Assembly: GCA_036172245.1 (NCBI GenBank)
Contig: JAYWIR010000018.1
Span: 1,860,001-1,924,000, forward strand
Length of the DNA stretch: 64,000 bases
Direction of reading: 5' to 3'
Origin: Raillietiella orientalis
Lineage: Eukaryota
The notes under the pieces: model-generated
Databases searched by the model: none
The model's input: the letters and a program-made list of their open reading frames with translations, nothing else
What the model was told of the DNA's origin: nothing
Part shown: one piece after another, positions 11,328-43,479 of the stretch
How the letters are laid out: every line of letters starts with the position of its first letter
Numbering within the stretch: the first letter of the stretch is position 1
Program-made: the position numbers and the translations under genes

Positions 11328-11756
11328 GGACTCCTAACGTCACAGCATAAGAAACAGGAAATTCGCTGACGTGGTTACGGGGAATCAGGTATACAGAAAG
11401 ATATGTTTTTTACATGAGAAAAGCAATCAGCATATACATCATTAATTACTCAAGTACTCATCTTTTCTGTCCGCCTTTTTCTTACATCACTCTTCGTGAA
11501 GATCGCTTCCTCCTTTCCGAATTTACGCGAACTTCGACTCCCGTAAGAAGCGAATAATCCATGTGTAACTCGAGCTCTCATTCCACCTGCTGGCAAAGAA
11601 ATCTCTCGTTCACAAAGCTTGGCGACCACAGTGCGGACTTCCTTCAGGGGAAGCGCGAACGCATTCTGCGAAGAACGGCGTCAGGGACCGCTCATCTTAA
11701 CCCCTTTCTCTGTCTTCTAGCAGTGTATTCCAAGTGCTCCCGGAATAATGCGACAC

Positions 11757-14700
11757 ATGAAGCTGCAATCCGCCACAATTGTGCTGCTTGTTTTGGCAAT
11801 CGACAAACAAACAGATGGCTTCAGTCATGCCGCAGGAGAGGGTACACGTGTCCCTAAAATAGGTAAAACCGAGTTTTAGGGAAGTTTGAACAATTTCCAC
11901 GGCTCCCCACAACAGCCATAATAGGTGCGGGGATTGGCGGCACCTCAGCTGCATATTATCTAAACAAAGAATTCAATCAAACATTATGCATAGACATCTA
12001 TGAGGCTCAAGAGGTAGGGGGACGCTTAGCAACTGCAGAAATCGACGGATCCAATTTCGAAATGGGAGGATCAGTAATTCACCCCAAGAATCGCTACATG
12101 GTGGAACTCGCCAAAATCACGAAGTCGGGTGAGCCGAACTTCCATTCCATTCCTGCATGCCAAGGCGACAAGAGCGTTTCCGTCACGATCCTCACTGCAC
12201 CGCAACACATTCGAGTACCTCCGAGCGACCTCGGCCAGGTAGCGTGACCATTCGGCTGCACACGCTGAAAGCGAGCTCCACCCTACTTGGTGGTGCGCAT
12301 ACTCGCATTGCGAGGAAGAATCCAGCGAGACGGGCATAACCCCTGACCAAGGACTGCCGTCCCCCGCGTTCCCCAGTTCCGGATACACCGTGCGTCGACG
12401 TACTGCAAACGCCCGCCGCGCAGTCGAAGGAGCATCAGCAGCGCTCGAGAAGATGCGGAAACGGAAAGCGGGAAAATGGCGCTGGCTGGCGCGCGAAGAC
12501 ATCGAGCACGTGCTCCGCTCGCGAAAGAGCTGGGCTCACACTCATGGACGGTGGGCTGCATGCTGAGGAGGAAGACTGCCCGCTTGGTGACCATGCTGCA
12601 CGCGTTACCGCCGCGGCTGAGGTAGCTTGCAGGCTGCTCGTTGACGGCAGCGTCATTCCTCTTCCCACCTTTCTCCTTCAACTCCCTGGAACGGACTCTC
12701 AAGTCGTGGGTTCGCAAACGAAAGCTGCGATCGCCACGATGAGCGGCGCGGTTGGGGCGGATTCGGCCGGCGTTGCGGCGTCTGCGCGAAGGCCGAGTTC
12801 GTCTTGTGGAAGCGGTCGCTGCGGCCAGAGGGGCCGTGCGGAGCGCTTGGCGCGCGCCGCTCGCCTTGCGAAGACGGCACCACCCTCCCTGACGACTGTC
12901 GCGATCCCGTGGGCTGTGTTGGTGCATCCTTTCGTGGGATGATGCGCTCCCGCAACGCCCACGGCGCTCGATACACGGCGTTAGCGATACTCTTATTGCC
13001 GACACGCGAAGCGTCGCTGCGGTGCAGTGATGTTCGCAGTCGGTTTTCCATAATTGTGAAGCCTTGCTCGGCAGCTGCTGGCTGCTTACGGTCTCTCTGT
13101 CTTCCTGCTCCTGCTTCCTTCACCTCGTGAGCAGGGGATTGAAAAGATATCACCATCAGACAACCGCACTTGCGAGTTGGAGCATGTGGTTACCGTTACA
13201 TGGACATGTGTCCCAGATGCGATCGCGTGTGTAGCGAGGTATAGAAGGGAGCAAGCCAAGGGAGGTACGAAGAACCTTGTTGGACTGCTTCGCACAAGCG
13301 GCGGGAAATTTTTGGCGAAGAATGGTTCTCTGCTGCGCAAGAGGATTTCGAAGGAAAGAACGAAAATGATTGGTACTTCCTCTTACATGAAGAGAGTGGT
13401 TGTCGCGTGGGAGCGTTGTCAGCAGGTCAGGAGATGGGGGGGATGCAGAGAAAGAAACAAGAAAGAGCCTTGTGCTGGCAGCAAGTTCCCATCCTTGGTT
13501 GCGCACATCCAAGGGAAGATTTAGTGAAGAGACAGAAATGACGGCGTTGCTGATCCTGGATGGACTGGCATTCCTAGCAGCACTCTCTGCTCGCTCCCAC
13601 GACTTGCAGCTCAGGATGTCCGGGAGCACGTGAGTGCCTTCCGTCGAATTTCCCCTTGAGGACCAGGTACGCAGCTTGCGGAAGTTAAGACAGGTCCACA
13701 TGAGGCGGGAGGTTTGCAGAAATGCCAAGTATGGGCGCAATGGGGTCGCTATTTTAACTTCGGGACGGAATTCTTGAACACTTTCTGCCGCTCAAAGGGC
13801 CGCTGTTGGGGTATGAGGCGAACGCAGTGCGACCCGGTTCAACGTGACGTAGACTAGGAGCGCGAAAAGAGAGGCTCAGAGTTAGAACAAGCGAACATGT
13901 CGAACGCCGAATCCGCAGAAAATCCATCTCTTTCTGTAAAACATTGTAGACCATTTTTCAGAAATGCTTGACGACGACAACCCTGGAGGTTTTGGTTTGT
14001 ACAACGCCATGACACCAGTCTTTCAATCAAGCTCGTCGGAAATCAGAAACATGCTCCTTCTGCTTTGGAGATACTGGCTAAGTCCCATGTGGAGCCAGGA
14101 ACTGGTGAAAGAGGCATTAAAAGATTTCTCCCAGTAGGTAGCCATTTACCAGTAGTTTGGTTTCCCTGAAAATTCAATGGTTACGCGACACGTCTTTCTG
14201 ACCATTCTCGATAGCACATACCGCGATCTTCCTACATAGTGCTAGCCACGAAAAACGGCAGCGCTCTTTCTCAAACACGAATCAGGATACTATATGTCCA
14301 CGCATTCTGCTAACGAGGCACTCCTTTCCCGATGGCGCCAATTCGGATCCGAAGTGCCAAAGGAAGACAGGATTCAAAATTTAGACGTCGTGGCAAGTGG
14401 AAGAAAACGAGCGCGATCTCCGTCGGCGCATCACATCCAGCCCTTCCGTCCGTCAACTCACGGCATTCGAACCGCAGGGCAAGGCGAAGGCTCACGAGGT
14501 GACCCCCGGGCCCTTGCTCTCCCTCACCCACGTTCGCGCGGAAATTCGCCATAACGTAGTGGAAGCCCACAGAGTCCGCTTCCGGACGAATCCCTAGAAG
14601 GAAGCGCTGCTCACTCGTGAGCAGACTTGCGTCTCTACGGAAACGGACGCACGCACGCCGACAGCCCGGCAACCGAGGTGTGCGTTTGAAATGCGTTCTC

Positions 14701-17700
14701 CCGCCGACTCGCCTCCTGCAACGCAAGATGGCTTGCCAGCGTCCTCTGCAAATGAGCAGCTCCGCCTTCGACCGAACCAACTCGGGAAGGCGCGCCCCGA
14801 TGGACACCACTTGCTTCCAGCTTCGCGGACACTTCGTGTGCCCTGCACCTGTGCACTCGCGCATCAACGAACCGCGCAACACCCAGAAGGCACGAGCTAC
14901 GTGCGAACAGGCCCCCGGGGTTTCGTCGAACGGATCTCCAACGCGAACGCAGCACGGAGGAAGCTTCTACGGATACAGCTCGTCCGAAGCAACAGATCGA
15001 CCGTGGACGGAACGAACGGAAGATTGGATGGCGCAGTTGCTCCACGTGGAAAGAAGGACTGAGCGAGCATGTCGGCTGTGTGGGCACTCCGTGTCTCTTC
15101 GCATATGGGACGCAATCCTCCGAGCGTGTGATACACCGATTTCGCAAAGAAGGCACGTGGCTCCGGGACTGCAGCGGCACTGGCGCACCACGTGCGACGG
15201 GAAAACAGGAAGGACGGCCTCCAAAAGCACCACGACTAGCCCACCGCTTGCGCCAGCAGAGACCTCCACCGAAAGTGTCGGAGCGATTTCCCCTCGAGAA
15301 GACGTTGACAGGCGCAATCGGAAGTACCGCCACGGGAAACGCGCTCCTGTTCCTGGATGAGGGCAAGGTGCTTGGGCACTCGCACGCCCGCTCCTTTCCC
15401 CCAATTCGAAGTAACCTTTCCCTGGCAAAGGCCATCTTAGGAGCGCTAAGAATTCACTCCCTCCCCCGCAAAGTCCTCGAGTCGAGCCGGATGGATTGCG
15501 TTTCCTTTCAGTTTCCCCTAACGATCCTGTCTAGCGATGCCTCCCGCAGATTGGGAAGAGCAAGTGGACCGAAACAGCTTGGAAGACGGCTGACCCTCCC
15601 CGCATCCAAAGATTCAGTTTGTGGAGTGATGAAATTCGGTGCCGTGCGAAGAGCAGACGTGGATTTGGGGGAAGAATGGTTCTCGTTTCCGAGGAACATG
15701 ATGGTCACGGCTTGGACAAAAAGACCGTGGGCTTCCTGCCGCCATCCTGTCAGTGATTCCCTTCGCTCCTGCGCGTGGCGCATAGTCTCAGTCAGGCATC
15801 TCCTTCCTCCGACTTTGGCGCTACTCGATCTGTAACCCGTTGCAGGAACGCAAACGATTTCTGATTCCGCCCAGATTACGAATTGCCCGGGACAATCTTC
15901 TTTCCAGAATCTACGATTATCAGGATGCAGGAACTGGATTCCAATCCCTGAAGGAAATGGTGCAAATCTGGGGAAAACATCTGAGACACGCCGTGGAGAC
16001 GAACGTACTGACTGGTTTCTTGGAAGAAGGATTGAGTCGGAAGTTCATTGAAGAGATGGTACTCGCCACTCTCAGAGTAAACTACGGACAGGGATTGGAC
16101 GTGCACAAATTTGTGGGTGAGTGAGGGTTGACTGGTGTTCTCCTTCGCACGCTTTTCTTTTCTGCGACGAGTGCGGTTGGGTTCTTGCGGCGCGGTTTCC
16201 GGTTTGGTTCCGTCTTGCGGAAGTTGCTGCACGCGAGCGTTTCCCCGGTTGCTGAGGAAACTGCGAGTGATTTCGGTGAGACGATGCGTGGTTTTCTGTT
16301 GCATTGCCTTCCTTCCAGTAGGGCGAGATGCAGGTTTGGTACGTCGGGGCGCGTGGTGTTCCTTGCACGGTGTCCAGTGCTTGTTCGCACGCACTAGGAC
16401 GTGTGTGCGGCGGTGTCGAATGCGGGACGTTGCCTTCAACGGGCGCGCATTCTCGCAGAATGGGGGTGAGATCCGGCCTGTGACCTGGATTGCGGGGATG
16501 CAGCACTCCGGCGTGACTCGGAAAACGGCTCACTCCAGAGCTTTTGCGAACCTGGCGGATTCCGATGCGCACTCACGTGGTAGCCACGAAGGTGCGCGCC
16601 TTCCGCGGTCAGCGTTCTGCACTTTCCGTGCTCCTGTGCCGTTTCGCAGCGCGTGTTCGGAGATGCGCGCCCGGAGAGGCGATCCAGGCTGGGTGTTGCA
16701 GAGTCTGCAGCGCCTTCAAGTGGTCACGTAGCGGCTACGGCACTTGGAGGAAAGACGAAGGGAAGACCGCGACGGCTGCACGTACCCTCGGTCGTTGTGT
16801 CCGTCACGGTTGCGCACGCGCGAGTGCGCCGATTGGTGGGCGTCGTTTGCAGGGGCGAAGGTGGCAGAGCGCGAACGCAATCCGAGTCGGGAAAGGATGC
16901 GCCGACGTGGTGGTCGGTCCGCGAGTCGGTTCTTTTTGTCCGCACGCGGGAAGCGAGTTATCCCCCTTGTCGGCGCAGGGATTGCAACGGATGGGAAACG
17001 TCCTTTGGTGTTTTCGTAAAAGGAAGATTTCAGGGCACCGAGGTTCTCTTTTGGCGGTGGTTGCAGGCCAGTGGGCATCCTGGGGTTGCTGGTTGTGGAA
17101 TCAGTGAAGACGGGAACGCATAGCGAGACTTTCGGGAAAGAAGTTTCCCGAAGGTTCGCTTCGCGTTGCTGAGCTGAGCACCGCGGCGTGTGCACGATTA
17201 ACGTTCGGTGTTCGGGTGCCAACGTTGGGTGTTCAGCGTGTTCGTGCTTCGGACACGATGACGCGTGCATCTGCGATGCGGCGAGAAATGCAGGGGAGAC
17301 GTGGTGCCCGTAGTAGTGCGGGCAGATGGAGATGCTTTTGCGACGTTGAGCGCAGACGAGGAAGCGGGAATCCTGACGGCGAGAGCTGGTGGTAAGTGTG
17401 CACTTCCCGGGGCGGGGCTGGGGTTCTTCTCTGTGCCGAGTGCAATTGGCGCGCCTTTTTTGAAACGCGCGTTCTCCGCGTGATGTCTTTTCGATTAGCA
17501 TCTCTGTTTTTCAGGTTTCGTTTCCATGTCGGGATTCGAAGGCGATCTGTGGTCGGTGAAAGGAGGGAACAAGAAGATTCCGGAGAGACTACTATCTATC
17601 TCGAAAGCGAGGCTGATACACGGTCTGGTCGTTGCTATAGAAAAAGTAGAATCGAACAAATACCAAATACTGTATGAGGCGACGGGAACGCAAAGTACAA

Positions 17701-18254
17701 AGAAAAGCGCCGAGATTTACGATGTGGTCATCTTTGCGGCACCCATCTTCGAGAACCATCAGCGAGTCTCGTTACAAGGAATAAGAAATCCCCAAAGACA
17801 CATACAGAGATATCACAAGACCGTGTCGACCCTGGTGAAAGGTCGCTTCAACGCCGATCTTTTCAATGCGAGAGAGGATGATACCATCATTCAATTGAAC
17901 AGCAGCGTGTTTTTTAATTCGATCAGCAAAGTGCACGGTGTAGATGGAGAAGAGGCGTCGGATGTTTGGAAGATTTTTTCCAAGGAGTCACTTCCAAAAA
18001 GCTCCTTGGAAAGTCTGTTCTCGGTCATCGAGGATTGGAAATCCCGTGAATGGTTCGCTTACCCGGAGTACTTCGTCGACCTGCAAGGCTGGGACTACAG
18101 CTTCCAAGTTGACGACGGCTTCTATCACATCAACGCGATCGAGTGGCTGGCTAGCGCCATGGAGATGAGTGCCATTGGTGCGCGGAACGTTGCCCTATTG
18201 GCACGCAGCTACTGGAACTCGCAGCTTTCGCACGACGAGCATATCGGACGCTGA
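11757..18254 (+). CDS. PCYOX1: Prenylcysteine oxidase 1-like, paralog A, ~479 aa; exons 11757-11862, 11916-12128, 13962-14133, 15908-16116, 17515-18254
   Basis: Signal-peptide-like [17 protein letters not shown]-binding [94 protein letters not shown] junctions with phases 1,1,2,1 give 1440 nt in frame. An alternative in-frame ATG lies at 11748. AATAAA at 18288. Confidence 0.92.
13032..13925 (-). mobile_element. ~0.9 kb segment present in intron 2 of PCYOX-A but absent from B and B'; probable decayed retroelement fragment
   Basis: Alignment to copy B breaks after GGTGCAGTGAT (13031/39099) and resumes near 13926. The minus-strand ORF has NLPLDVRNQGW, weakly like the non-LTR LP..VR...W region. 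Confidence 0.35.
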
Positions 18255-18573
18255 CAGAAAGAGAGGTGCGCGTGTGGACCGGGTGTGAATAAATGCAGGT
18301 CTCGAGGCGCCATATGCCTTCATTGCTCTCAGGCCTCCCGCTTTCTGGTGACTCAGATCTTTTCTTTGTCCTGCCTCCTTAGCCCGCTGCTCCCCCGACC
18401 GCTACTTGCAACGGTAGTGACCTCCGAAAGCGACGCAGGACTCAGTGGTCTTGGTGATGTATTTACACATGTGGACGCCTATCCCGGTAGGGGGTGCGAG
18501 AGCACTTCATGTTGCCGGATCACGGATGGAAGAAGGAGGAAGATCGGAGAAAAAACTCTTCAGTGGGGTCCAC

Positions 18574-21500
18574 TCAGGACTCCCAGACCGTGCGTTCGGT
18601 CTTCTTCCTCATCGCCGGCAGCATCCGTAAGCACCCGAAGAGAAGCACGAAGACCTCCATCATGGATATGAAGCTGCCTCCCAGGCTGAGGCTGACGATC
18701 CCTCCGATGTCGCCTGGGAAGGGAAAGAGGGAGGGATTGGCCGCAGCCCCCGTCCGTTCCACGTAAACTATTCTCCGCGCGCGCTCGAGGCATTGTGGGG
18801 AGCGCATGGCGCCCGCGCGGGTCCATTTCGCAGATGCAAGGAAGGCCCGCGCGCGCGAGCCTGCCTTGCGTGGCGAGGACGTGTCCCTCTGGCCGCTTGG
18901 AGACGCGAGTGGGCGCGACGCATCCCGAAAGCAACCGTTCGGGCTGCGGGCTGCGGGCCGGTCAACGCGCGAACCGTGGCAACCGGGACTGGCGAACGCA
19001 CTCCGGGTACTCCGCAGAGAGGCGCATCGTCGGGGTCGGGGATCAAAGAGCGTCCGGGAGTCTGCAGCCTGAAGGAGTGGGCTATCCCCGAGCAGGAGCG
19101 AGCTCTGCTTCTCCCTCGATTCCCTCTCTGGCTGTAGAAGGAGGAAGGGGAGCCCGCGGACGGAACTGGCAGCAGGACGAGAGGGGCAGCTTTCCGAAGG
19201 TACGTGAGGGCAGGGAATCCCGACGCACCCGAGGGCCAGCCGCACAGCGGGGGTTCCCGATCTCTCCTTCCTCCTTGCGGAGGACGGCGGCCCACCTTTC
19301 CGCGACGAGCAACGGGTTCACGGAATGAGGAGCGGGGGGCCAGGTCGGCAGCGGGCGCGGACTGCTGAAATCCAGACGAGGAAGCGGAGAGAGGGAGAGA
19401 CGCAGAAATGGGAGAGGTGTGTGGGATGGGAGGGGAAGGTCGCGCCTCCGGGGTCGCCTCGCCGCGCTCACTTAGCGTGGTCAGGAACTGCTCCTGGCTG
19501 AAGATGATGTCGGTGGTGTCGTGCATCCGGAAGTACACAGTCACGTCGGTCGGGATCTCCCTGGAAACGGGAACCGAGGGTGAGAGAGAGGAAGCTCCCG
19601 GGGCGGCTCCGAAGCGGAAACGGAACTCGCTCCTCCAGCCGCTCAATGCGCAAACGGGTGCGCTCCCTCCACTCGCCTTCTCGCAGGCCGCGTCGAGGGG
19701 GAAGCTGTTCGCGTCCGGACGGAAATCGCCCGGAAGCTGCAAGCTACGGGACGTGTCTCACGCTCGCGGCGCCGCTTCCAGCAGGAGCCGCACCGTGCGC
19801 CCGAGAGCGCGCGGTGGCGGCCGCGGCTGCGTGGAGAAGCCGGAAGCGAAGCGGCCACCCGTTCGGTCGGTGCGCTCCATGACGCGCCATGCTGACTGCG
19901 CGCGCGCAGCCAGGCGGGAACCCCGCGCTGCCGGCGGAAAGAGTCAGGGCCGCTCCGGGAACGCTACAGGATTCCTCCTAAGGCAGCGGAGCCCCGATCA
20001 TCCCAGAGACCTACCCTTGCGGTGGCCGCACACGCCCAAAGGAGTCCCTCAAGGGACTTTCCAGCACCTTCCCGGTGTACAGGGAGCGCATGCACCCGTC
20101 CGCGAAGAAACCTGGAAGACAGGAGAACTCCGTTGCCATCGTCGTTCAGGGAAAGCTCCTCACAGTCTTTCTCTCCTCCGTTCCCCTCTTGTCCCGAAGT
20201 GCAGCGCGTGCCAAAGCTGGAGCGACTCCTCCGGGGCGTTGCCACTCACCAAACGGGACAGTCAGCGCACGCGGGCTCTCGTTGTCCATTTTGGAGCGGG
20301 CGGGATGTGAACCCCCCTTCGCGGCAACTGGGGCGACCGGGGACCGTCTCGCAAAAATATGCTTTCCGAGGTCCCGGGCCGTCCTGGACAGGAAACAGGG
20401 ATCTCCGAACCCCGCTCGATGCGGCGCTTCTCTGGGAATCCGCGAACGACTCATCGATGTTGCGCCCGTCGAATCCCCTGTCCACGCGACCACTGGCTGC
20501 TTGCCTTGTCTAGGCCGTGCCGAGACCCATTCTCCTCCCAGAATACGGCTAGAGAAGAAATCGGCAACCAGGTGCGTCCTTTCTCCCCACCATTCGCTCC
20601 CTTTTCCTCGTCGGAGATGCAGCTCCCTTGGAGCGTTCCCGTTCCACGTTCTCCCCTTTTCCCGAGTTCCCGCCGCCCGTGCGTTCCGATGAGCGCGCGC
20701 CGTCTCACGGGAACGCCTCAAGCCCTCCTCGTGCACCCACGCGCGGCAGCACCAACGAGGTAGGGCGAGGCCCCCGAAGTCCACCAATGCAGGCCCACCC
20801 TCCGACGCAGCCCGTCCGAAAATCTGTCTGCGTTGCATGAACCGCGCTACGCCGCACCATGGGGGCATGCGCGCGAGCTCCCCCAGAGGGTGATCCCTGC
20901 CGCTACGAATGCGCGGAGGAGTCGATGCCGTCTCCAGCCCAGACCGCATGCGGACGATACGCCGCCTGGACGACCTGGCTAGGGTCGCTGCAGCGGCAAC
21001 TGCAACGTGCCGAGCATGGCCTCCGGTCTCATCTGTCCGCAAGTCATCCGGCTCGCGAGCGACTGCGCCCGGACCGAGGCAGCTCCGGGACATTTCGCCC
21101 TCAAGGATGCGAGCCGCCGGCCCGCGAGGTGCATTTCGCACGCTCCGGGCAGCACGAGCAGTTATCAACCGCTCCGCGGAGGACGGGAAGATGGAGAAGA
21201 TGCCTCCCCCACCGGTGCCTGGCAGGCATCGGCGAAGCTCCCCCTCTGTGCTGCGCGCACCGGCGCCAAGGGAATTTTGCTGTCGCGCCCCATCAGGCAC
21301 CTGGGACTCGCGCGGGAGGTGGGCGCGGAGCGGGGAGGAAGGAGTCCGTTGGATGGAACTGTCGCCTCCGTCCGCTCCCTGGCTGGCGAGGAAGCGATCA
21401 GGGGTCCACGGGGGGCAAGCCGCGCGCTTCCGGAAGCTGCGTGTGGATTCATCCCTGGCTGCGCCTTTCGCCTCTTGCGGCCGTCTGCCCGGCAGTGTTT

Positions 21501-24500: not shown

Positions 24501-27500
24501 TCCGGCCGCAGGGAAACGGAGACGGACTGCCAAGGAGGAGTCCCGCGGCGTGCGACCTGTGGAACGGCCGCGCGCATCCGGGGATCCCGGTCGACCTGCG
24601 AGAGCGATGCTTCGGGTGTCTCCGGAGATGCACCTTCCTGGTCCTCAATGGAACCACCCGCACCCCGCACTCTTCCGGGGGATGGCGGGAACTAACAACG
24701 GACTATTTTCGGGAAATCCGCGAGCTGCCGGAGCCTCCTCGTCCGAGTGAGGCGGGAGAGAGTCGGGTCGGGCGACCCACGCCCCGCTTCATACCGGGAA
24801 AGCCGACGCCGCAAGAGAAGAAACCTCGGCGTCTGCTTCTTTCGCCGTCCTGGAACGGACAAACGCCCCAGCGGGAAGAGGAGGACATTCGGACAAGGGG
24901 ACGCTCCCTGAGGGACGCGGGTTCGGGTCGTCGCGTGCGGGACGCGTCGAGAATCCGGAAATTCCCCCCCTCGCTGGAGGGCATGGAAGGAAGTTCATCA
25001 CCAGGCGACCAGTCCTCTTGCAGGAGAATCCGCCGATGCACCTGCTCTCTGGAGTTTCCTCTCCATCATAGGTGGTTCCCGTATGCACTGCTTCCCCCAC
25101 CGGAGGAGGAGTGTGTCCCCTCTCTCCAGAGCATGTTCAGCTTCACCCGGACCACACCAGCCGAGGTAGAAGGAGTTGCCATCCAGCAGGAACCCATACA
25201 TAGACAGGGGCCACCGTTTCTTCCCAAGGCGGCCACGTTGCCCACCTCTTGGTCCCCTCCGCGAACCTCGGCAGCGTCCTCTGCAGGTAATGCACACCGA
25301 CCGCGAAGCCGAACGTGGAGGTGGCAGGACCTGGCATACGCGTCGTCGGCTTGAGCAGTCGACTGCACGCAATATCCCCCTCCCCCTCTCCTCTTGCCCA
25401 CCCGAGAGAGTTCGAAGGAAGTGCCGCCGCACGCTGCATCCGCAAATGCCTTCCCGTGCCTCCCCGGACCGCCGCTGCTCCTTCCCTCGTCGCCCGTCAC
25501 GCGACTGCCACCGCGCGATTGCCGTCCGTCCGCCGCAACTCGGCGGAGGCGCCGGAAGAGAGGGCACCGCAGGCGCACGAGATTGCGCGGCGGAGGCAGC
25601 TGAGCGGAGCTTTCTGTCTTCCGTCCGCGTCTCTCCGCGAGCGGGAGCGGCCAGTGCACCAACCTCTCCTTCGGAGAGCATCCCGTCTCCGGTCGAGACT
25701 TCAGTGGGAAGCTGGTCTTTCTGGTGCACGTACAGCAGGAGCGCAATACTTGCGAAGGACAGGAATAAGGGACTGCACCTCCAGGCGGGGCCGCGATTCC
25801 CCCCGACGGAAGCGCGACCCCGTCTGGCGAGCACGGCCGTCGGATCGGCTCCCCAGATGGCGGGTTGTGCGGGCAGCGGGGGCGGCGGCAGACAAATTGT
25901 CCACGACTCCTCGGGCGCCATCTCCGTACAGCGGCAGCATCACTCCCGGAAAGGGAGAAAGGACGCGCTGCTCATCGCGCGAGGACCGCCTCGCCAGCAG
26001 TGCCCCCTTCTGCCATTCTCCCATTGTTCCACTTCCTTGGTGCTCTGCCGGGCAGTCTCTCCGTCTTCCTGCACCTCACCACCGGGATCGAGAGGCTCGT
26101 CGCGCGGCAGGCATCTCCCCTTCCGCAGGAACTCGAAGCCGCCCCCACCTCCTGTTCCCGGTCGATCCTGGTGGCGAAGCGGAAACTCGAGAGAACGCGG
26201 GATGCACCTTTCCCGGATAGACATCCGAGCGCCTATGGCCGATCTCGAGAAGGGCACGCCGAAGCGCGCCTGCCCAGCAAACCTCCAGCCGGGTCGCAGT
26301 TATCTCCTACCGTCACTTGGCCGACCGGCGTTCCTTCTCCACCGACGTGGAAGCCGTTGCCACAGGCAGCGAACTTTCCGCTTGCCTCTCCCGCCAGGGT
26401 CGCGCCCGATCGAGGCGTCGCGGTCAGTGTCCTGCTCCTGCCGGCAGGCTTCCGATCCCAGCTGCCCCAACGAACTGCGTCCGCTGCAGGGCACGCGTGC
26501 GTCCGTCCGGCCGGCCATCGACGTCTCACGGTCCGTCCCGGCGCCGTTCGGCGCGCAGTCGCCCGCGCGGCGATTCGCCAGCAGAGCGCGCTGGCGACGG
26601 TCGCGTCGGCTCCTTCGCACGCAGGGCGCCGGACGAGATGCGGCCGACCACGAGCGACCGACATGCGTGTGGGGCACAGAATCCGCGGTGCCACTTTCGT
26701 GTCCGCACCTGCAGTCGGCTAGCGCGAGCGCGGGCGGCGCTACCCCGCGCAGGATGGCGAGCGGTGCATACGAAACGCAGACCGTGCACACGCCATGCCG
26801 CGCCACGTTCGCTTCGCTGCCGTTCACAGATTGGCTCCCTGGCGCCGGACGAAAAGTTTGCGCGCGACCTTCGCGGACCTGCATCGCCGGCGGCGTAGCG
26901 CACTCGCTCGCCCAACGAGTCAGCAGGGAGGAGGGGCCCTCCAAAGTTCGTCCACCCTTTGGTGCCGAATGGTGGCGCGCAAGAAACGCGACGAGACAGA
27001 CGGATGGCACGCAACAGAACGGCGGGAAGACAGTGCCATTCAACGGGGGGCGTGGCAAGCGGTGCCTGTCGGACCGCCCGCGAAGTTGTCTGCGCGTTCT
27101 CGGCTGTTTAGGCGGCAGCAGCGCCGGCGACCGCGGGACCTGCGTGCGCTATGCCGCCTGCGCCCTCCGTGTACGGAAGAGGAAGAACGGGAAGGAGGAA
27201 TGCGACCGCGCTGTGGCCGCGCGACGGCACCTCCGCCTTCGCCGGTACCCATCGTCCCGCACGCACGTGCCGGTCAGCGATCCGGCAGGTCTCTTTTGAA
27301 TTGGGTGTGGTTGAACCACCGGTCCGACCACAAGTTTCTCTGTAATAAGTTTGTTGAAAAAGTAGCGCTGCGGCGCACCCTGGCGCAATTCCCTAGCACA
27401 CGGATTGGCGGGCAGTCGGGGCAGTCGAACCGCCGAAGCCTTTCAAGGGCGGGTAGCTTCGTTCTATTCCGAGGAGGGACGCTCTCACACGTCACGAATA

Positions 27501-30441: not shown

Positions 30442-33229
30442 TCCGGAGCCTGCGGGCGTCCGTGCTCGCACGCTCCGGCCTACTCGACTGCCGTTCCGGG
30501 AAGCGCGTGGTACGGACTTCCCCTTGTCCCCCCCCCATCCCCACACCCCGTCGGAGGTGCGGTGCGTGCGCGCAGCGCGGAGTCCTCGTGAAAAATTGAC
30601 GAGACCGCCGCATTGCGAGGCGGTTCCCGGCACCGTGTTGGCATGGAGGCAAGGCGGAGCCGAAACGGAAGTCGCCGTTCGAGCGCGGAGGGGCAGCGGC
30701 TGGAACAGCTCGCGGGATAGCCAGCCGCCCGTCCGTCGTTGGGAGTAGAGAGCCCAACGCACCAGCGACGGGAATGGTGTCTGGCCGCGGAGGTGCAGGA
30801 GGAATTCGCCGCTTTCCGGATGCTCCCGGCGCTAGAGTGCTTTTTCTCACGGGCAGCTTTCGGAGCGTTGCTGGGACGGCAGGAATTTTGTCTACTTGTA
30901 GATGCTTTCTGGTCTCGCGGCAGGGTGGCCACGCAAGGAGGCAGGGCGCGTTTTCTATTTGCTGTTTTTTCTCCACAGTTATCCGAGTGGTGGCTTTCGG
31001 CTGCCTTGGATGGACGGGATGGTGAGTTGCGCGCCGTATTTCGTTCGCGAGGGAACCGTGCTAAGGCACTGCGACTGGAGAGTGGCAGTGGGAATGTAGG
31101 AGGTCTGGAATGCTCATGCGTCTTGGTGGGAAGGGCACGAGCGCAGGCACCGTGAATAGCCGCGCTAGTTGGTCAGTCCGACGCGGAAGGTGGGCGACAG
31201 CAGTTCTGCCCTCTCCAAGGAGCTGGTATCGGAAACGAGCGCGCGTGATGCGCGGCGTGGAGGAGGAAGAAGAAAAAAAATGGCCCAAGGCAGCTTGGCA
31301 GCCGAGTTTCGTTCTCCCGCTTTCAACTCTTTCTCCGGCTTGTGAAACGCTGTCCCGGGATGCTGCTCTCGGAGACGGAGTCGCTGAACTCCGCCGCTAA
31401 ATGGAAAGCTGCTGGCTAAGATGTGTGAGAGACCGTGCGTCTGCGCGACGGGCGAATCGCATCCACAAGAGAGACAAGTGAGAGGAATCTCTCCCGTGCA
31501 TCTGCAGTCGCCACCGCGAGTCAAACTGCGTCCCCGGCGCCAGTAGACACGCCGACCTAGTAGTGAACGGCGGATTTGAGAAACAACAACTTGAAAACAG
31601 TGGGGATAGAGCAGCGTCAGTCCAGGATTCTCCCGGGCGGCACAACACCGAATGGACCATCGAACCACCCGACCACCGCCGTCTTCCCTCACCGGTGAGA
31701 CCGCGCTGACAGCTCTTTGGGATGCAACGCAGCAGAGGAAAGAGAGCAAGCTGAGGTCCTCCCTCCCACAGAAGAGCTCCCGCCTTGCAATCTTGCTGAG
31801 TCCCGGATCCAGGGGACAGCACCAAACGAGTCAACAAAAGGCGACAGAGTTCTCCAACGTTCAACTCCCGGGACACGGTGCATCGGTTTCGAGATGAATG
31901 GGGCCCCTCCGATGAAGAAGGTGCCCCCTTGGACCGAAAGAGCTGGGTGCACCGAGGCGGCGGATCCCTGGGTATCACCTTTCGGCATTTCCGTTCCCTT
32001 GCAAAGGACGAACTGCGCTTCCGAGCTAATGCCAGGGTCAGCTTCAGCTAGCGGGTCCGCCCGCTTCTAGGCTTTCCCCAGACGGAATCGGAACAGGCCA
32101 GTTCGTACGACCTCCATTCCTCCTATAGAATATCCGTGCGATGAAAAGGAGAAAGAGAGAGGAGGGGATGGTTGCCCGACTCGTTTGGTTGCTCTCTGTG
32201 CTCATCGTTCTTGTGACGTCTCCTCTCTTGAGAGACGTTCTTCCGTCGTCTTCTTCTAGTACGTGTTTCCGAATTTTCCAGAAGATGGCAGCAGCGGAAT
32301 GTTTTCAGAGGCGTTTTCCCCAATGTGGGGAAAACGCCTCTGGCCAGTATCCTCGCCCTCGGAACATTCACGGTTACCCTGAAAGCACGAGTGTGATTTC
32401 GCGGAAGACCGTTTGCTGCCTCTGGCAACGTTTCGTCTCGTCCTGACGGGCATTCCGGTCCCCCGCGATCCATGAGTCTTTGCTGAGCCTCGAGGTCGAC
32501 TGTTTCCCTTTCCGTCTTCTTCAGCTCACTCGTTCTTGGTCCGCACTACTTTTGCTGAGCAGACGCGGTTCGGATGTTCTCCTGGAGCCTGTCCCGACCG
32601 TTCCTTCGGCGCCCCGGAGATCTCCGCTGGATGCCTCGCTTTGTTGGCTACCAACTCGCCTGCAGCCAGGCGCATCCTGTACACTCGTCCGAGGAAAAGG
32701 ACGGGAGCTCTCTCTTTGCGAGGTGAGCCGGGAGAGCTTGCCTTAGAAAAAGAGGAGGAAGAGGAGGAGAAAGCGGGACACATGAACCTTCATCCCATCT
32801 GGCTGCTGTTTTCTGACCGCTCTTCTTTCAGATTTTTGCAGTGCCTCTGATTATGATTTATCTTCTCTAACTAATCGCACCCCCTGCAATGGTCGCCGTG
32901 GTGGATGCCATCCGGTCAGTCGACTGTGAAGCTGCAGCAGCGCTGGCCGATGTTCACAAGGAACCTCTCTTCACTTGCTGTTGCACTCAAGTACGCCGCT
33001 GGTCCGGGCAGGCGGCGAGTCCACTCCTTCTAGCGCCCTACAGCCAGACTCGCCCTATAGGAAACAGGAGGTTATGAAGGTCAGGTGAGCCTCCGGCAGA
33101 TCTCGTGAATCCCTCTGAGTTCCCCTGGGTTAGTCGTCAGTGCGAAGATCAACCGGGAAGACAGCTCAATAGGAAGACATAGAACCGAGGACGGACTTCT
33201 GCAACTATCCCGGAGCAGCAGCTGCGCGT

Positions 33230-33800
33230 CTGGTGCCACCAGTTGCACTTCTCGTAAATTGTATTGCCCTCCGACCCTTGTGGTTGCGTTATGCAACGGC
33301 CCTTGGTGCACCGACGGACAATCACAGGGACATGATCAAGCCCCTCTTCGTGCGCGATGCCCTTTGGCCTGCCGCATCCCTAGCAGCTCTTTGCTGCCTA
33401 CGCGGGATTGTGGCGTCCTGGAGCTACGCGACAGAAGAACGGCATGAGAGGGACGCATCTGCTTCGCCCTGCACTTCCTGCAGACGGCAGCAAGATGGCC
33501 TCACCTGGGGCATACTCGGATGGAACTTGCCGACATCCTAGAAAGGATGCAGAGGACGCCTTCCAGAGGACAGTGATCCCCTCCCGTGCCCCCCAGAGTT
33601 ATTTTTCTTACTGATTTTTATTTTATTTTTATTTTTGTTTGCACCCTCCATCTCCGCTGCCGAGGCCCACTTCGTCGGCCTGCGTGCCCGTTACTCAACA
33701 GGTTCCGGACATTTTTGTACGATGTAGGGTTGACGACCCTACACATGTATGTTTATTATTTTTATAATAAACGCCCTGGCGTTACTGAGTGTTAAACCAG
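33230..33800 (+). mobile_element. 3' end of an L1/Tx1-like non-LTR element, same family as the 49-55 kb fragments
   Basis: PLFVRDALWPAASLAALCCLRGIVASWS matches LLFVWDALRPAAALAAVCCIRGIVAAWS (53948-54778 minus). It shares CAGTGATCCC(C/T)TCCCGT at 33571, a T-rich UTR and AATAAAC at ~33766. Confidence 0.8.
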
Positions 33801-35894: not shown

Positions 35895-38800
35895 GCCGTG
35901 ATGTAAGAAGCGAATGGCTGAGCGGGGAACTCCATTCGAAGACCCCACTGCGCCAACGATACCCCGCCGGACTTCGCTCCACTAATCAGGACGGGGAGGA
36001 AAGGGAAAAAGTACCGAAGAATTCCAAGTGGAGTCAAAAAAACACAGCTAAGCCAGAAAAAAAAAAACAGCAGCTAAGTTTTGTCCCTTCGCCAAGTCGA
36101 AGCCTTCATCCATTCGGCGGGATACAAAACACGGATTCTGCGTGCGAGCGCAGCAGACGACCGTGCGGGAGAGCTCATTCCTTCCTGCCACCATCCATGC
36201 CCCAGGGCCACAGAGCGAGCAAACCCCAAAACACACCCGAGTCGCAAATCTTCCCGAGGTGCAAGAACTTAAGGCGCCAGGCGGAGGTCCACAGCGCCAT
36301 TCGAACCATCAACAACCAAAGGGTGATAAAGACAGCAGAAGGAGGTGACTCGTTCACATTGCTTTCAAATGTGATCACATCTGGGACGACAGCTCCCAGC
36401 AAAAGACCGCAACAGCTCATCAAACACGGGATCACAAAATGCAGGTGACCTTCAATTCAACCTACTCTTAAAAGGTGTTCCTCCGCCATTCAAACACAAG
36501 GTGCATTCCCTTCTCTTCGCCTTCACATTCAGCAAAAGAGCTGTTACGCTTATCTTTCTCCTGATCGTTATCTAGGGAATTTCGGGAACACTCATGAGAG
36601 GATTTCTCACGAATTCTTCGTCGCCACAGACGAGAAGACAACAGCGAAACGAAAACAAAACGAGAAGTACCCATCACCCACGCTTCCGCGTTGTGCTTCT
36701 CGAGATTCACCTTCCGCTGTCCAACTCGTATGCCCAAGAAAAGTCCCTTTCGCATAGGAAGAACCAAAGGTGCTTTAACCGTTCCGTGGATCCGTGCCCT
36801 GCAAGGATGTCTTCCTTCATGCACGTGAGGACGGCACGCAGATGCCAGTCCAGCACTCCTACAAGACTTGTCAGCGTGCTTTTCAAAATCGGACAATGCC
36901 ACAGGCATCTTCTGCTTCTTTGACCATTCGGCTGCACGCTCAAATGCCACAGGCGGTGCACTCAGTAACTCCAAGGAGGAGAAATAAAGCCACCGAGCGA
37001 AAGAGATGACGACAGTTTGAGGACCGATCACGCAGCCGCTCATCTCCAGGAACATGCAGGCGTAAAAATAGTAACGCTACTGGTCCATCCTGAGGCCAAT
37101 GCATGAGGAGCTTCAGATTAGGGCCTTCAAGCCGTAACAGAAGATAACGACACCTGACACAACTTACACACGGCTGCCAAACGTACACACATCTCATTTC
37201 GCGACACATCACGCTTTCAACAGTTTCCTCCGCACGCATCTTCAACCTTGTTGCCATTTCATCTCGTCGTCACGAGACCGCCAATACAAAACAACGAAGC
37301 GCAACCTCCATTCCTGGTTGCGGAGACCTCGAATTTTCACAAACGATCGACATAACAGCCACACATATTCCTCCAACACGACACTAATGGGAAAAATAAT
37401 GATTCAAAGAGAGAGTCCTGGGAATCCCACCTCCAGCATAGCAAACAGACACGTTGAAACGACTGCTCGCAATTGAAGGATCCATTTCTCAGTGTATAAG
37501 ATGATACCCTCATGTGCTCGCGCATTCCTCACTGCTGTTCATCTGTTTCCCACATCGCCCTTCGTGAAGATCGCTTCCTCCTTTCCGACTTTACGCGAAC
37601 TTCGACTCCCGTAAGAAGCGAATAATCCATGTGTAATTCGAGCCGTCATTCCACCTGCTGGCAAAGAAATCTCACGTCCACAAAGCTTGGCGACCACAGT
37701 GCGGACTTCCTTCAGGGGAAGCGCGAACGCATTCTGCGAAGAACGGCGTCAGGGACCGCTCCTCTTAACCCCTTTCTCTGTCTTCCAGCAGTGCATTCCA
37801 AGTACTCCCGGAAGAATGCGACACATGAAGCTGCAATCCGCCACAATTGTGCTGCTTGTTTTGGCAATCGACAAACAAACGGATGGCTTCGGTCATGCCG
37901 CAGGAGAGGGTACACGTGTCCCTAAAATAGGTAAAACCGAGTTTCAGGGAAGTTTGAACAATTTCCACGGCTCCCCACAACAGCCATAATAGGTGCGGGG
38001 ATTGGCGGCAGCGCAGCCGCTTATTATTCCCGGCAGGAATTCGGTGAAGACGCCAAAATAGACATCTATGAGGCTCAAGAGGTAGGGGGACGCTTAGCAA
38101 CTGCAGAAATCGACGGATCCAATTTCGAAATGGGAGGATCAGTAATTCACCCCAAGAATCGCTACATGGTGGAACTCGCCAAAATCACGAAGTCCGGTGA
38201 GCCGAACTTCCATTCCATTCCTGCATGCCAAGGCGACAAGAGCGTTTCCGTCACGATCCTCACTGCACCGCAACACATTCGAGTACCTCCGAGCGACCTC
38301 GGCCAGGTAGCGTGACCATTCGGCTGCACACGCTGAAAGCGAGCTCCACCCTACTTGGTGGTGCGCATACTCGCATTGCGAGGAAGAATCCAGCGAGACG
38401 GGCATAACCCCTGACCAAGGACTGCCGTCCCCCGCGTTCCCCAGTTCCGGATACACCGTGCGTCGACGTACTGCAAACGCCCGCCGCGCAGTCGAAGGAG
38501 CATCAGCAGCGCTCGAGAAGATGCGGAAACGGAAAGCGGGAAAATGGCGCTGGCTGGCGCGCGAAGACATCGAGCACGTGCTCCGCTCGCGAAAGAGCTG
38601 GGCTCACACTCATGGACGGTGGGCTGCATGCTGAGGAGGAAGACTGCCCGCTTGGTGACCATGCTGCACGCGTTACCGCCGCGGCTGAGGTAGCTTGCAG
38701 GCTGCTCGTTGACGGCAGCGTCATTCCTCTTCCCACCTTTCTCCTTCAACTCCCTGGAACGGACTCTCAAGTCGTGGGTTCGCAAACGAAAGCTGCGATC

Positions 38801-41800
38801 GCCACGATGAGCGGCGCGGTTGGGGCGGATTCGGCCGGCGTTGCGGCGTCTGCGCGAAGGCCGAGTTCGTCTTGTGGAAGCGGTCGCTGCGGCCAGAGGG
38901 GCCGTGCGGAGCGCTTGGCGCGCGCCGCTCGCCTTGCGAAGACGGCACCACCCTCCCTGACGACTGTCGCGATCCCGTGGGCTGTGTTGGTGCATCCTTT
39001 CGTGGGATGATGCGCTCCCGCAACGCCCACGGCGCTCGATACACGGCGTTAGCGATACTCTTATTGCCGACACGCGAAGCGTCGCTGCGGTGCAGTGATC
39101 TCTGCTTTTCTGTACAACATTGTGGACCATTTCCAGAAGCGGTTCCTGTTCGAGATATGAAAACGATCTCACTGTACGACGGACACAAGGAGATCTTCGA
39201 AACTTCCGCTTGGAAATTGGTCAACTTCTTCACTATGTTATGGAGATATGGCTGGCGCATAGTTCTGGTCAACAAGTTGCTGGAAGATGCCTTGAAAGAG
39301 TTCGAGAAGTGAGTATGTAGTCAGTAACGTTTTCTGCATGACAGTGAAAAACGTTCCTCTGACCAATTGTCCACCGGAAACAGATTGAAGATATCGCAAG
39401 CTCCTTCCAAAGGGCTACGCCACGAAAAACGGCAGCGCTCTTTCTGAAACACGAATCAGGATGCTGTATGTCCACGCATTCTGCTAACGAGGCACTCCTT
39501 TCCCGATGGCGCCAATTCGGAACCGAAGTGCCAAAGGAAGACAGGATTCAAAATTTAGACGTCGTGGCAAGTGGAAGAAAACGAGCGCGATCTCCGTCGG
39601 CGCATCACATCCAGCCCTTCCGTCCGTCAACTCACGGCATTCGAACCGCGGGGCAAGGCGAAGGCTCACGAGGTGACCCCCGGGCCCGTGCTCTCCCTCA
39701 CCCACGTTCGCGCGGAAATTCGCCATAACGTAGTGGAAGCCCACAGAGTCCGCTTCCGGACGAATCCCTAGAAGGAAGCGCTGCTCACTCGTGAGCAGAC
39801 TTGCGTCTCTACGGAAACGGACGCACGCACGCCGACAGCCCGGCACCCGAGGTGTGCGTTTGAAATGCGTTCTCCCGCCGACTCGCCTCCTGCAACGCAA
39901 GATGGCTTGCCAGCGTCCTCTGCAAATGAGCAGCTCCGCCTTCGACCGAACCAACTCGGGAAGGCGCGCCCCGATGGACACCACTTGCTTCCAGCTTCGC
40001 GGACACTTCGTGTGCCCTGCACCTGTGCACTCGCGCATCAACGAACCGCGCAACACCCAGAAGGCACGAGCTACGTGCGAACAGGCCCCCGGGGTTTCGT
40101 CGAACGGATCTCCAACGCGAACGCAGCACGGAGGAAGCTTCTACGGATACAGCTCGTCCGAAGCAACAGATCGACCGTGGACGGAACGAACGGAAGATTG
40201 GATGGCGCAGTTGCTCCACGTGGAAAGAAGGACTGAGCGAGCATGTCGGCTGTGTGGGCACTCCGTGTCTCTTCGCATATGGGACGCAATCCTCCGAGCG
40301 TGTGATACACCGATTTCGCAAAGAAGGCACGTGGCTCCGGGACTGCAGCGGCACTGGCGCACCACGTGCGACGGGAAAACAGGAAGGACGGCCTCCAAAA
40401 GCACCACGACTAGCCCACCGCTTGCGCCAGCAGAGACCTCCACCGAAAGTGTCGGAGCGAATTCCCCTCGAGAAGAGGGTGACAGGCGCAATCGGAAGTA
40501 CCGCCACGGGAAACGCGCTCCTGTTCCTGGATGAGGGCAAGGTGCTTGGGCACTCGCACGCCCGCTCCTTTCCCCCAATTCGAAGTAACCTTTCCCTGGC
40601 GAAGGCCATCTTAGGATCGCTAAGAATTCACTCCCTCCCCCGCAAAGTCCTCGAGTCGAGCCGGATGGATTGCGTTTCCTTTCAGTTTCCCCTAACGATC
40701 CTGTCTAGCGATGCCTCCCGCAGATTGGGAAGAGCAAGTGGACCGAAACAGCTTGGAAGACGGCTGACCCTTCCCGCATCCAAAGATTCAGTTTGTGGAG
40801 TGATGAAATTCGGTGCCGTGCGAAGAGCAGACGTGGATTTGGGGGAAGAATGGTTCTCGTTTCCGAGGAACATGATGGTCACGGCTTGGACAAAAAGACC
40901 GTGGGCTTCCTGCCGCCATCTTGTCAGTGATTCCCTTCGCTCCTGCGCGTGGCGCATAGTCTCAGTCAGGCATCTCCTTCCTCCGACTTTGGCGCTACTC
41001 GATCCGTAACCCGTTGCAGGAACGCAAACGATTTCTGATTCCGCCCAGATTACGAATTGCCCGGGACAATCTTCTTTCCAGAATCTACGATTTTCAAGAT
41101 GCAGGATCTGGATTCGATTCCCTGGAGCACATGGTTCAAGTCTGGGATAAACATCTGAGATTTGCCGCTGATGTCGACGTAGTAAATGGTTTCTTGGAAG
41201 AAGGATTGAGTCGGAAGTTCATTGAAGAGATGGTACTCGCCACTCTCAGAGTAAACTACGGACAGGGATTGGACGTGCACAAATTTGTGGGTGAGTGAGG
41301 GTTGACTGGTGTTCTCCTTCGCACGCTTTTCTTTTCTGCGACGAGTGCGGTTGGGTTCTTGCGGCGCGGTTTCCGGTTTGGTTCCGTCTTGCGGAAGTTG
41401 CAGCACGCGAGCGTTTCCCCGGTTGCTGAGGAAACTGCGAGTGATTTCGGTGAGACGATGCGTGGTTTTCTGTTGCATTGCCTTCCTTCCAGTAGGGCGA
41501 GATGCAGGTTTGGTACGTCGGGGCGCGTGGTGTTCCTTGCACGGTGTCCAGTGCTTGTTCGCACGCACTAGGACGTGTGTGCGGCGGTGTCGAATGCGGG
41601 ACGTTGCCTTCAACGGGCGCGCATTCTCGCAGAATGGGGGTGAGATCCGGCCTGTGACCTGGATTGCGGAGATGCAGCACTCCGGCGTGACTCGGAAAAC
41701 GGCTCACTCCAGAGCTTTTGCGAACCTGGCGGATTCCGATGCGCACTCACGTGGTAGTCACGAAGGTGCGCGCCTTCCGCGGTCAGCGTTCTGCACTTTC

Positions 41801-43479
41801 CGTGCTCCTGTGCCGTTTCGCCCGGAGAGGCGTTCCAGGCTGGGTGTTGCAGAGTCTGCAGCGCCTTCAAGTGGTCACGTAGCGGCTACGGCACTTGGAA
41901 GGAAGACGAAGGGAAGACCGCGACGGCTGCACGTACCCTCGGTCGTTGTGTCCGTCACGGTTGCGCACGCGCGAGTGCGCCGATTGGTGGGCGTCGTTTG
42001 CAGGGGCGAAGGTGGCGGAGCGCGAACGCAATCCGAGTCGGGAAAGGATGCGCCGACGTGGTGGTCGGTCCGCGAGTCGGTTCTTTTTGTCCGCACGCGG
42101 GAAGCGAGTTATCCCCCTTGTCGGCGCAGGGATCGCAACGGATGGGAAACGTCCTTTGGTGTTTTCGTAAAAGGAAGATTTCAGGGCACCGAGGTTCTCT
42201 TTTGGCGGTGGTTGCAGGCCAGTGGGCATCCTGGGGTTGCTGGTTGTGGAATCAGTGAAGACGCGAACGCATAGCGAGACCTTCGGGAAAGAAGTTTCGC
42301 GAAGGTTCGCTTCGCGTTGCTGAGCTGAGCACCGCGGCGTGTGCACGATCAACGTTGGGTGTTCGGATGCCAACGTTGGGTGTTCAGCGTGTTCGTGCTT
42401 CGGACACGATGACGCGTGCATCTGCGATGCGGCGAGAAATGCAGGGGAGACGTGGTGCCCGTAGTAGTGCGGGCAGATGGAGATGCTTTTGCGACGTTGA
42501 GCGCAGACGAGGAAGCGGGAATCCTGACGGCGAGAGCTGGTGGTAAGTGTGCACTTCCCGGGGCGGGGCTGGGGTTCTTCTCTGTGCCGAGTGCAATTGG
42601 CGCGCCTTTTTTGAAACGCGCGTTCTCCGCGTGATGTCTTTTCGATTAGCATCTCTGTTTTTCAGGTTTCGTTTCCATGTCGGGATTCGCAGACGGTCTG
42701 TGGTCGGTGAAAGGAGGCAACAAGAAGATTCCAGAAGGACTTATATCTGTCTCCAATGCTACCCTCATTAGGGATCCTGTTCTTGATATCTCAAAAGATA
42801 GTACTAGTGGACTTTACTATTTGAATTCTCATCGTCTGAATGAAAGTCGCGTTGTGCAAAGTGGAAGTTACGATATTGTTATCCTGGCAGCTCCCTACAC
42901 GACTGAACACCATCAAATTAATTTTAGGCAACTGACTGCCCCACGACAAATGCGATACCACGCAACTGTGACCACCATTGTAAAAGGTGATTTGAACGCC
43001 TCTCTTTACGGCAAGAATCCTAAAAACGTGGTTGTCCAGTTGAGCCGCAACGCCAGCGAATTGAATTCCATCATCAGAGTGCATGACGTAGATGGAGAAA
43101 ACCCGGCAGCATTTTGGAAAATTTTCTCTCAGAAAGCTCTTCCAGCGAAAGAGATAAAGGATTTGTTTCCTAACCACAGTGGCTCCACTTCTTGCCGATG
43201 GTGGGCTTATCCTGAGTACTCCCATTTTCCGAAGCAGTTGGATTACAAGTTCGAGCTGGACAGTGGACTGTATCACGTCAACGCAATTGAGTGGCTGGCT
43301 AGCGCCATGGAGATGAGTGCAATCGGCGCTCGCAACGTTGTGCTATTGGCACGGGACTACTGGAATCGGCCACGTCGGCACATGCGGCCCATTCGACGCT
43401 GAAGAGATGCGGTGCGGGTGTGTACCGGATGTGAATAAAGGCAGGTCCCGAGGCGCGATGTTGCTACATTCCTCTCAGG
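35895..43479 (+). repeat. Segmental duplication unit B (direct repeat of ~10075-18333)
   Basis: See unit A. Identical spurious ORFs recur in the ORF track at constant offsets. Confidence 0.95.
37825..43402 (+). CDS. PCYOX1: Prenylcysteine oxidase 1-like, paralog B, ~478 aa; exons 37825-37930, 37984-38196, 39137-39308, 41082-41290, 42666-43402
   Basis: Exon lengths 106, 213, 172, 209, 737 (the first four equal those of A; exon 5 is one codon shorter) with the same phases. Motifs [26 protein letters not shown] and [20 protein letters not shown] are present. The frame is open throughout; AATAAA at ~43434. Confidence 0.92.

Follow-up and report, generated by a model that had tools for sequence, protein, structure and literature searches.

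Gene duplicates whose introns diverge less than their exons are known from a small number of systems. Venom phospholipase A2 paralogs combine conserved introns with accelerated exons and raised replacement change. For duplicates that exchange sequence by gene conversion, Teshima and Innan are said to have described in 2008 a 'peak of divergence' around selected sites, and the human RHD/RHCE pair was reportedly treated by Innan in 2003 with a two-locus model of conversion and selection. Here, we describe two prenylcysteine oxidase (PCYOX) genes, copies A and B, in a window of 64,000 nt from Raillietiella orientalis (JAYWIR010000018.1, 1,860,001-1,924,000 of the forward strand; all positions below are in window numbering). 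The copies form a mosaic in which kilobases of near-identical DNA alternate with blocks diverged to ancient levels. We interpret them as old tandem paralogs under long-lasting interlocus gene conversion from which these blocks, the islands, escaped, a reading to which we assign a probability of about 0.62. According to the review PMC3924837, the primate red/green (L/M) opsin genes lie 24 kb apart and have introns homogenized by conversion, with exon 5 as the divergence peak, and the non-coding DNA of the colobine RNASE1 duplicates is less diverged than their coding DNA. The human genes PCYOX1 and PCYOX1-like, on chromosomes 2 and 5, are 43% identical according to PMC11530802 (J Biol Chem 2024).

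A self-BLAST of the window revealed three copies of the PCYOX gene, A, B and C, and a tblastn search with four PCYOX proteins found no further copy in the window. The homology of A and B extends over 10075-18333 and 35895-43479, both on the forward strand, at an offset of 26,068 nt. In a three-way MAFFT alignment of the copies, with identity scored per 100-nt window, A and B are 99-100% identical over five segments (S0-S4, Table 1) that comprise introns, upstream DNA and parts of exons and hold 53 substitutions in 5,893 aligned bases (0.9%); one 23-nt indel lies in S4. The longest identical runs in the coding alignment measure 137, 128 and 81 nt and were matched in none of 20,000 shuffles. None of the 22 intron reading frames of at least 100 aa has a Pfam match, the window has no Rfam match, and no tandem repeats were found in 10000-19000.

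The near-identity is broken by five sharply bounded islands (I1-I5, Table 1) that take up 342 of the 482 aligned codons. At the background rate, the probability of at least 24 differences in the 47 nt of I2 is about 1e-36. Exon 3, enclosed in I3, measures 172 nt in both copies and encodes 15 identical residues out of 58. The island continues into the introns, with about 85% identity over 35 nt upstream and about 62% identity, with gaps, over some 113 nt downstream; because these flanks are homologous yet anciently diverged, I3 appears to have diverged in place. Past I4, A and B are the same up to the end of exon 4 at 16116. In exon 5, 24 identical nucleotides are followed by I5, where the same residue is found in 109 of the 236 aligned codons (the identity of the pair over exon 5 is given as 49%); beyond it, 3' of 18333/43479, no A/B homology is detectable. 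Large length differences between A and B are found at I1 and at the left edge of I3. The A-only block at the latter and the two I1 sequences have no other copy within the window, and no terminal repeats were found in them. Although coding DNA makes up 9.9% of the span, at least three of the four internal islands touch it (simulated p = 0.010), and 23 of 200,000 simulations yielded the exact geometry of two islands wholly within exons and one around an exon.

A preliminary description of this DNA had reported near-identical introns, a patch of about 50 nt in exon 2, an entirely diverged exon 3, an exon 4 differing in its first half, an exon 5 that differs over most of its length with about half of it identical, and two open frames, all of which agree with the present data. 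Its placement of the switch points inside exons is correct for exons 2, 4 and 5, whereas those around exon 3 lie in the introns. Its two-copy account stands for A and B and had missed copy C, the upstream island I1, the A-only block and the 1.2 kb of near-identity upstream of the genes.

The age of the islands was analyzed with Nei-Gojobori counts over the aligned A/B codons, expressed as synonymous divergence (dS), replacement divergence (dN) and the proportion of synonymous differences (pS). The island codons (n = 342) have a dS of 1.30 and a dN of 0.52, and the remaining 140 codons have a dS of 0.021 and a dN of 0.003, with 139 of 140 residues identical. An island dS as low as the intron divergence, which the preliminary description had linked to a recent duplication with rapid amino-acid change, is not what was found. 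Its proposal of an old pair is borne out by the islands in exons 2, 3 and 5, with pS of 0.59-0.75, and by a quick tree of exon 5, in which A and B are sisters (SH-aLRT, the Shimodaira-Hasegawa-like approximate likelihood ratio test, 99) with branch lengths of 0.40 and 0.84. The longer branch is that of B, whose evolution has been about twice as rapid as that of A. The pair is placed among insect sequences, at an exact position that is weakly supported. Given this sister relationship in exon 5, the islands stem from one old duplication in their own lineage.

The homogenization that the preliminary description proposed is recent, given the low dS outside the islands and a non-coding divergence of 0.9%, and occurred more than once. 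The divergence of the shared segments ranges from 0.10% to 3.10%, an approximately 30-fold spread (chi-square 32.2, p = 1.7e-6). As the segments are unequally diverged, a single event does not fit, and several conversion events of differing age are indicated. In S2, A and B differ at one site, and B and C differ by 0.26% overall, so that S2 is as young as the B/C duplication. Exon 5 also has intermediate divergence towards its two ends: its first 30 codons have a pS of 0.23 and its last 30 a pS of 0.50, compared with 0.61-0.83 between them. Intermediate divergence further occurs in some 78 nt of the 3' untranslated region (3'UTR). Ages therefore run from about 0.1% up to saturation, which repeated conversion tracts would produce and a single duplication or replacement would not. 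In the 3'UTR (18255-18333 in A and 43403-43479 in B), these first 78 nt or so are about 83% identical, including the AATAAA signal, next to coding DNA in which about 50% of the synonymous sites differ. Either a conserved element of the 3'UTR or a conversion tract of greater age could explain this.

Table 1. Positions of the PCYOX copies, of the segments shared by A and B (S0-S4) and of the diverged islands (I1-I5) in the window.
Feature	Position	Strand	Partner in copy B	Description
PCYOX copy A	11757-18254	+		Gene model; five exons, 484 aa, GT-AG introns, open frame
Copy A exons	11757-11841, 11880-12128, 13962-14133, 15908-16116, 17515-18254	+		Gene model
PCYOX copy B	37825-43402	+		Gene model; five exons, 483 aa, GT-AG introns, open frame
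Copy B exons	37825-37909, 37948-38196, 39137-39308, 41082-41290, 42666-43402	+		Gene model
PCYOX copy C	58725-64000	-		Inverted near-exact copy of B, cut inside intron 2 by the window end
Copy C exons 3-5	62991-62820, 61046-60838, 59461-58725	-		Exact copies of B exons 3-5
S0, 5' of gene	10085-11310	+	35905-37130	9 substitutions/1,226 nt (0.73%)
I1, non-coding, 5' of start codon	11335-11490 (156 nt)		37155-37558 (404 nt)	Unrelated sequences
S1, 5' region, exon 1, intron 1, start of exon 2	11492-11942	+		14 substitutions/451 nt (3.10%)
I2, inside exon 2	11943-11989		38011-38057	24 differences/47 nt; 6/16 residues identical; pS 0.59
S2, remaining exon 2, 5' part of intron 2	11990-13030	+		1 substitution/1,041 nt (0.10%)
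A-only block in intron 2	13031-13926	+		896 nt absent from B; directly abuts I3 on its left side
I3, exon 3 and intron flanks	13927-14246		39099-39420	pS 0.75 (saturated)
S3, intron 3, first 11 nt of exon 4	14247-15918	+		15 substitutions/1,672 nt (0.90%)
I4, inside exon 4	15919-16012	+		25 differences/94 nt; 18/32 residues identical; dS 0.39, dN 0.30
S4, 3' half of exon 4, intron 4, first 24 nt of exon 5	16013-17538	+		14 substitutions/1,503 nt (0.93%)
I5, remaining exon 5 and about 78 nt of 3'UTR	17539-18333	+		pS 0.63 over 236 codons

We infer that A and B, which lie 26 kb apart on the same strand, exchange sequence by interlocus (non-allelic) gene conversion, and have probably done so since their origin. 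Each conversion would overwrite a stretch of one copy with the other and reset the local divergence to zero, and its repetition would keep the upstream DNA, the introns and the exon parts that are conserved in the protein nearly identical. Five blocks would have left the exchange early and then diverged to ancient levels. Tracts that start in identical flanks would halt where homology collapses or a large length difference begins, giving rise to sharp borders. As long as the flanks are homologous throughout, such borders may fall at any place, introns included, and the alignable intron DNA around exon 3 would simply have aged as part of I3. The two smallest blocks, I2 and I4, would easily be overwritten by a spanning tract. 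Since identical DNA lies on both sides of them, a barrier alone cannot protect such small blocks, and selection against chimeric proteins is the likeliest reason for their persistence. By contrast, I5 lies on the margin of the duplicated unit, where the least exchange is to be expected, and it may persist without selection; like the two islands that abut large length differences, it could endure as a mechanical barrier. Subsequently, B would have been copied with its downstream flank, resulting in the inverted copy C.

Several points weigh against long-lasting conversion with selected islands. The dN/dS ratios, 0.65 for I2, 0.78 for I4 and between 0.4 and 0.8 for the islands overall, give no positive evidence for selected divergence, and those of I2 and I4 together are not different from 1 (Fisher p = 0.53). 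No ortholog in related species was found in a large protein collection by two protein searches, one with exon 5 of A and one with the alignment of exon 5 of A and B; the nearest proteins, from aphids and a spider, are 47% identical. Theory predicts a gradual fading of divergence away from a selected site, and the abrupt borders require the added assumption of a barrier. An exchange that lasts long enough for synonymous saturation is unusually long. The surroundings hold several other recent segmental duplications, with 98-99.7% identity in the self-BLAST, and because such duplications abound nearby, a recent large copying event would also fit the locus. Finally, some weight goes to a third paralog as donor and to over-polishing of the assembly, the one unlikely and the other a little more so.

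In the first of these alternatives, a recent copying or duplication over about 7.4 kb was followed by the import, or return, of the islands in short tracts from a third, diverged PCYOX paralog outside the window. The 47 and 94 nt of the smaller islands are indeed the size of typical short conversion tracts, and the region is rich in recent duplications. However, I3 has its borders in introns and I4 has its left border 11 nt into the exon, where a diverged donor would have no homology, and five separate imports that all preserve the frame are less parsimonious. A single recent copying event does not predict segments of unequal age, and the tblastn search of the window revealed only A, B and C. 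We regard this course of events as unlikely. It is somewhat less probable still that the assembly exaggerates the contrast, with introns that are truly a few percent apart having been made near-identical by polishing with cross-mapped reads, and with exon blocks too diverged to be affected. This would predict sharp borders at the very points where the copies are too diverged for reads to cross-map, in a region that the near-perfect inverted copy C and other 99% repeats make hard to assemble. Polishing can only sharpen a real contrast, however, as introns of the islands' age could not be aligned and would be beyond its reach. Moreover, none of the 53 scattered differences was erased, nor were the 23-nt indel and the 896-nt block, and in both copies the island sequences translate into valid, conserved protein.

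The remaining alternatives have lower probabilities. A single complex rearrangement, in which repair or replication switched templates repeatedly between two old paralogs, would account for the sharp junctions and for a possible 2-nt microhomology (AT) at the 896-nt length difference, but it needs about ten switches in register, several of them in DNA without homology, and leaves the 30-fold spread among the shared segments unexplained; it is very improbable. A recent duplication with accelerated exon evolution under positive selection, as proposed for snake-venom phospholipase A2 genes, is scarcely credible. Introns that are more alike than exons, a B branch twice the length of the A branch and the fairly high dN/dS of the two small islands would all fit it. 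Nevertheless, an island dS of about 1.3 against 0.02 elsewhere in the coding DNA excludes rapid protein change after a recent duplication: in I2, I3 and I5 synonymous divergence equals or exceeds replacement divergence, and the intron beside exon 3 has accumulated indels as well as substitutions, which point mutation cannot bring about while neighboring kilobases stay at 0.1-1%. With island pS at 0.30-0.75 against 0.02 outside, this model is refuted unless a mutation process targets exon blocks. Two further candidates were rejected. Conversion via a spliced copy, that is, complementary DNA, conflicts with the intron flanks of exon 3 being part of I3, and two haplotypes of one locus misjoined in tandem conflict with the flanks beyond 10075/35895 and 18333/43479, which are unrelated.

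Both proteins display the features of the PCYOX family. The exon 5 frames match the Pfam family Prenylcys_lyase (PF07156) with E values of 2e-60 (A) and 8e-56 (B), exons 3 and 4 give further matches, and NAD_binding_8 is found with E values of 1.7e-10 (A) and 6.2e-11 (B). The dinucleotide-binding motif GxGxxG, as GAGIGG, and the acidic strand that follows it, with the motif IDIYE, are present in both copies. The exon 5 frame of A also matches the solved structure of an ancestral PCYOX1 (PDB code 9fxq; E 2.8e-40). The three active-site residues mutated in PCYOX1 are Tyr221, which is essential, Val234 and Tyr433, according to PMC11530802, whose residue numbering corresponds to the chain index of 9fxq plus 20. 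Their equivalents are kept in A and B as the Tyr of RVNYGQ, the Val of GFVSMSG and the Tyr of AYPEY. Across the 116 family columns with a conservation of 80% or higher, six have a deviation in A only and four in B only. With open frames, Pfam matches, the motif for flavin adenine dinucleotide (FAD) and the active-site residues all kept, both copies look functional as judged from their sequences.

The islands were placed by alignment on a predicted fold of the aphid homolog P0002, modeled with 50 aligned sequences (predicted local distance difference test, pLDDT, 89.3; predicted template modeling score, pTM, 0.88). In this model, I2 takes up the C-terminal portion of the first Rossmann helix, behind GxGxxG, I3 a hairpin with the third and fourth helices, I4 the next three short helices, and I5 what remains of the substrate domain. 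Homogenized coding sequence encodes the signal peptide, the strands that bind FAD and the stretch containing the essential tyrosine (RVNYGQ) and Val234, and family-wide conservation is 0.68 in the shared coding parts versus 0.51-0.60 in the islands. It is plausible that the islands mark specificity-determining regions, as the preliminary description had suggested. Because they span 342 of the 482 aligned codons, they are not a fine map of specificity and at best a coarse one. Helices alpha3 and alpha4 of PCYOX1 touch detergent on a hydrophobic patch beside the tunnel entrance, according to a figure legend in PMC11530802. If the helix numbering used there matches the count in our model, I3 would encode this patch, which we take as a lead and not as a result.

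Copy C is 99.7% identical to B in the self-BLAST and extends from 64000 down to approximately 58650 on the minus strand. It belongs to an inverted repeat of 8.7 kb, in which 38128-46855 (+) corresponds to 64000-55269 (-) with 99.74% identity and which carries B/C and the downstream flank. About 8.4 kb separate the arms of the repeat, which is a genuine young palindrome or else an artefact of fold-back assembly. Another duplicated segment occurs three times, with 98-99.3% identity, at 26270-30833 (+), 49219-44422 (-) and 55269-57704 (+); two of these form inverted repeats that flank copy B, and the third adjoins copy C.

The first exon of a DEG/ENaC-type channel gene occurs three times, at 30445-30157 (-), about 44815-45037 (+) and about 57311-57089 (-). 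The exon matches the Pfam family ASC (E 5.4e-9) and contains the HG motif and the first membrane helix. The copies are identical up to ...FIYH, after which the copy at 30 kb remains coding to a GT donor, and in the other two an unrelated 418 nt replace 184 nt. No further exons of the channel gene were found, a protein search with the first exon gave no match, and among 56 minus-strand frames in 18.3-31 kb only the channel first exon matches the family. As mammalian PCYOX1L is reported to bind ASIC1a, a channel of the DEG/ENaC family (2025, PMC13155533), the neighborhood of PCYOX and channel exon may, by analogy, be more than coincidence.

The base composition of the region is uneven. The shared intron segments have a G+C content of 58-63% and the DNA between the genes 62-68%, with only 45-49% in coding DNA; GC-biased conversion is a possible cause of this contrast. 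In the first 10 kb of the window G+C is 35-40%, and it shifts abruptly near 10000, where the A/B homology starts. Between 18300 and 30000, about 12 kb at 62-68% G+C contain many long open frames on both strands. No Pfam match was found among these frames besides a 67-aa frame at 25500-25700 (-) slightly below the cut-off for DUF6197 (24.0 bits versus 24.6, E 5e-5), which lies in G+C-rich DNA full of long chance frames and is probably itself a chance match.

Taken to its furthest extent, conversion between A and B would have continued unbroken since a duplication old enough for synonymous saturation, with the islands as modules of a neofunctionalized pair that are kept by selection, a combination that we hold to be rather unlikely. 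The modules may then be I1, possibly regulatory, the surface of the first Rossmann helix, and the I3 hairpin with helices 3 and 4, perhaps forming a membrane patch beside the entrance of the substrate tunnel, and they would further include the next helices (I4) and the C-terminal substrate domain (I5). The faster-evolving B/C type might have acquired a new substrate or partner, and a candidate partner, by analogy with mammalian PCYOX1L and ASIC1a, would be the DEG/ENaC-type channel whose first exon was co-duplicated beside B and C. If this were true, the locus would be among the longest-lived and sharpest known cases in which introns are homogenized and exons kept apart. If conversion holds as such, the pair is a natural experiment on the time span and the resolution at which conversion and the forces opposing it can partition a gene, with blocks of down to 47 nt that stay anciently different amid kilobases kept identical, and it provides a coarse, assay-ready map of the swappable and non-swappable parts of a prenylcysteine oxidase. 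The locus also carries a warning for annotation and dating, as the identity of introns or of the whole gene would date the A/B duplication as very recent, and the islands show that it is old.

Compared with known systems, the A/B pair most resembles the primate opsins, with similar spacing (24 versus 26 kb), introns homogenized by repeated conversion and divergence limited to exon segments. The divergence of the opsin exons is read as the effect of selection that restricts conversion, which may also apply to I2 and I4 in the A/B pair. The opsin peak, however, surrounds a few known tuning sites, whereas A and B display near-saturated islands over most of the coding sequence, an upstream block and abrupt borders. 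RHD/RHCE and the colobine RNASE1 duplicates likewise have coding DNA more diverged than non-coding DNA, explained by conversion together with selection on coding differences, but they belong to other, vertebrate gene families, and their contrast is far weaker. The venom phospholipase A2 genes also share introns that are more alike than exons; their model rests on raised replacement change in exons and does not apply to islands that are synonymously saturated. Vertebrate PCYOX1 and PCYOX1L share with A and B the FAD Rossmann and prenylcysteine oxidase domains and a similar protein divergence (43% identity in humans versus 49% in exon 5). The human genes are on separate chromosomes, and the accessible part of the source mentions no sequence exchange between them, whereas A and B represent an independent, tandem and mosaic duplication. 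A full-text literature search, with subscription journals outside its scope, found no report of gene conversion in prenylcysteine oxidase genes. The A/B locus is the opsin/RH kind of pattern in a new gene family, in an unusually clean and extreme form.

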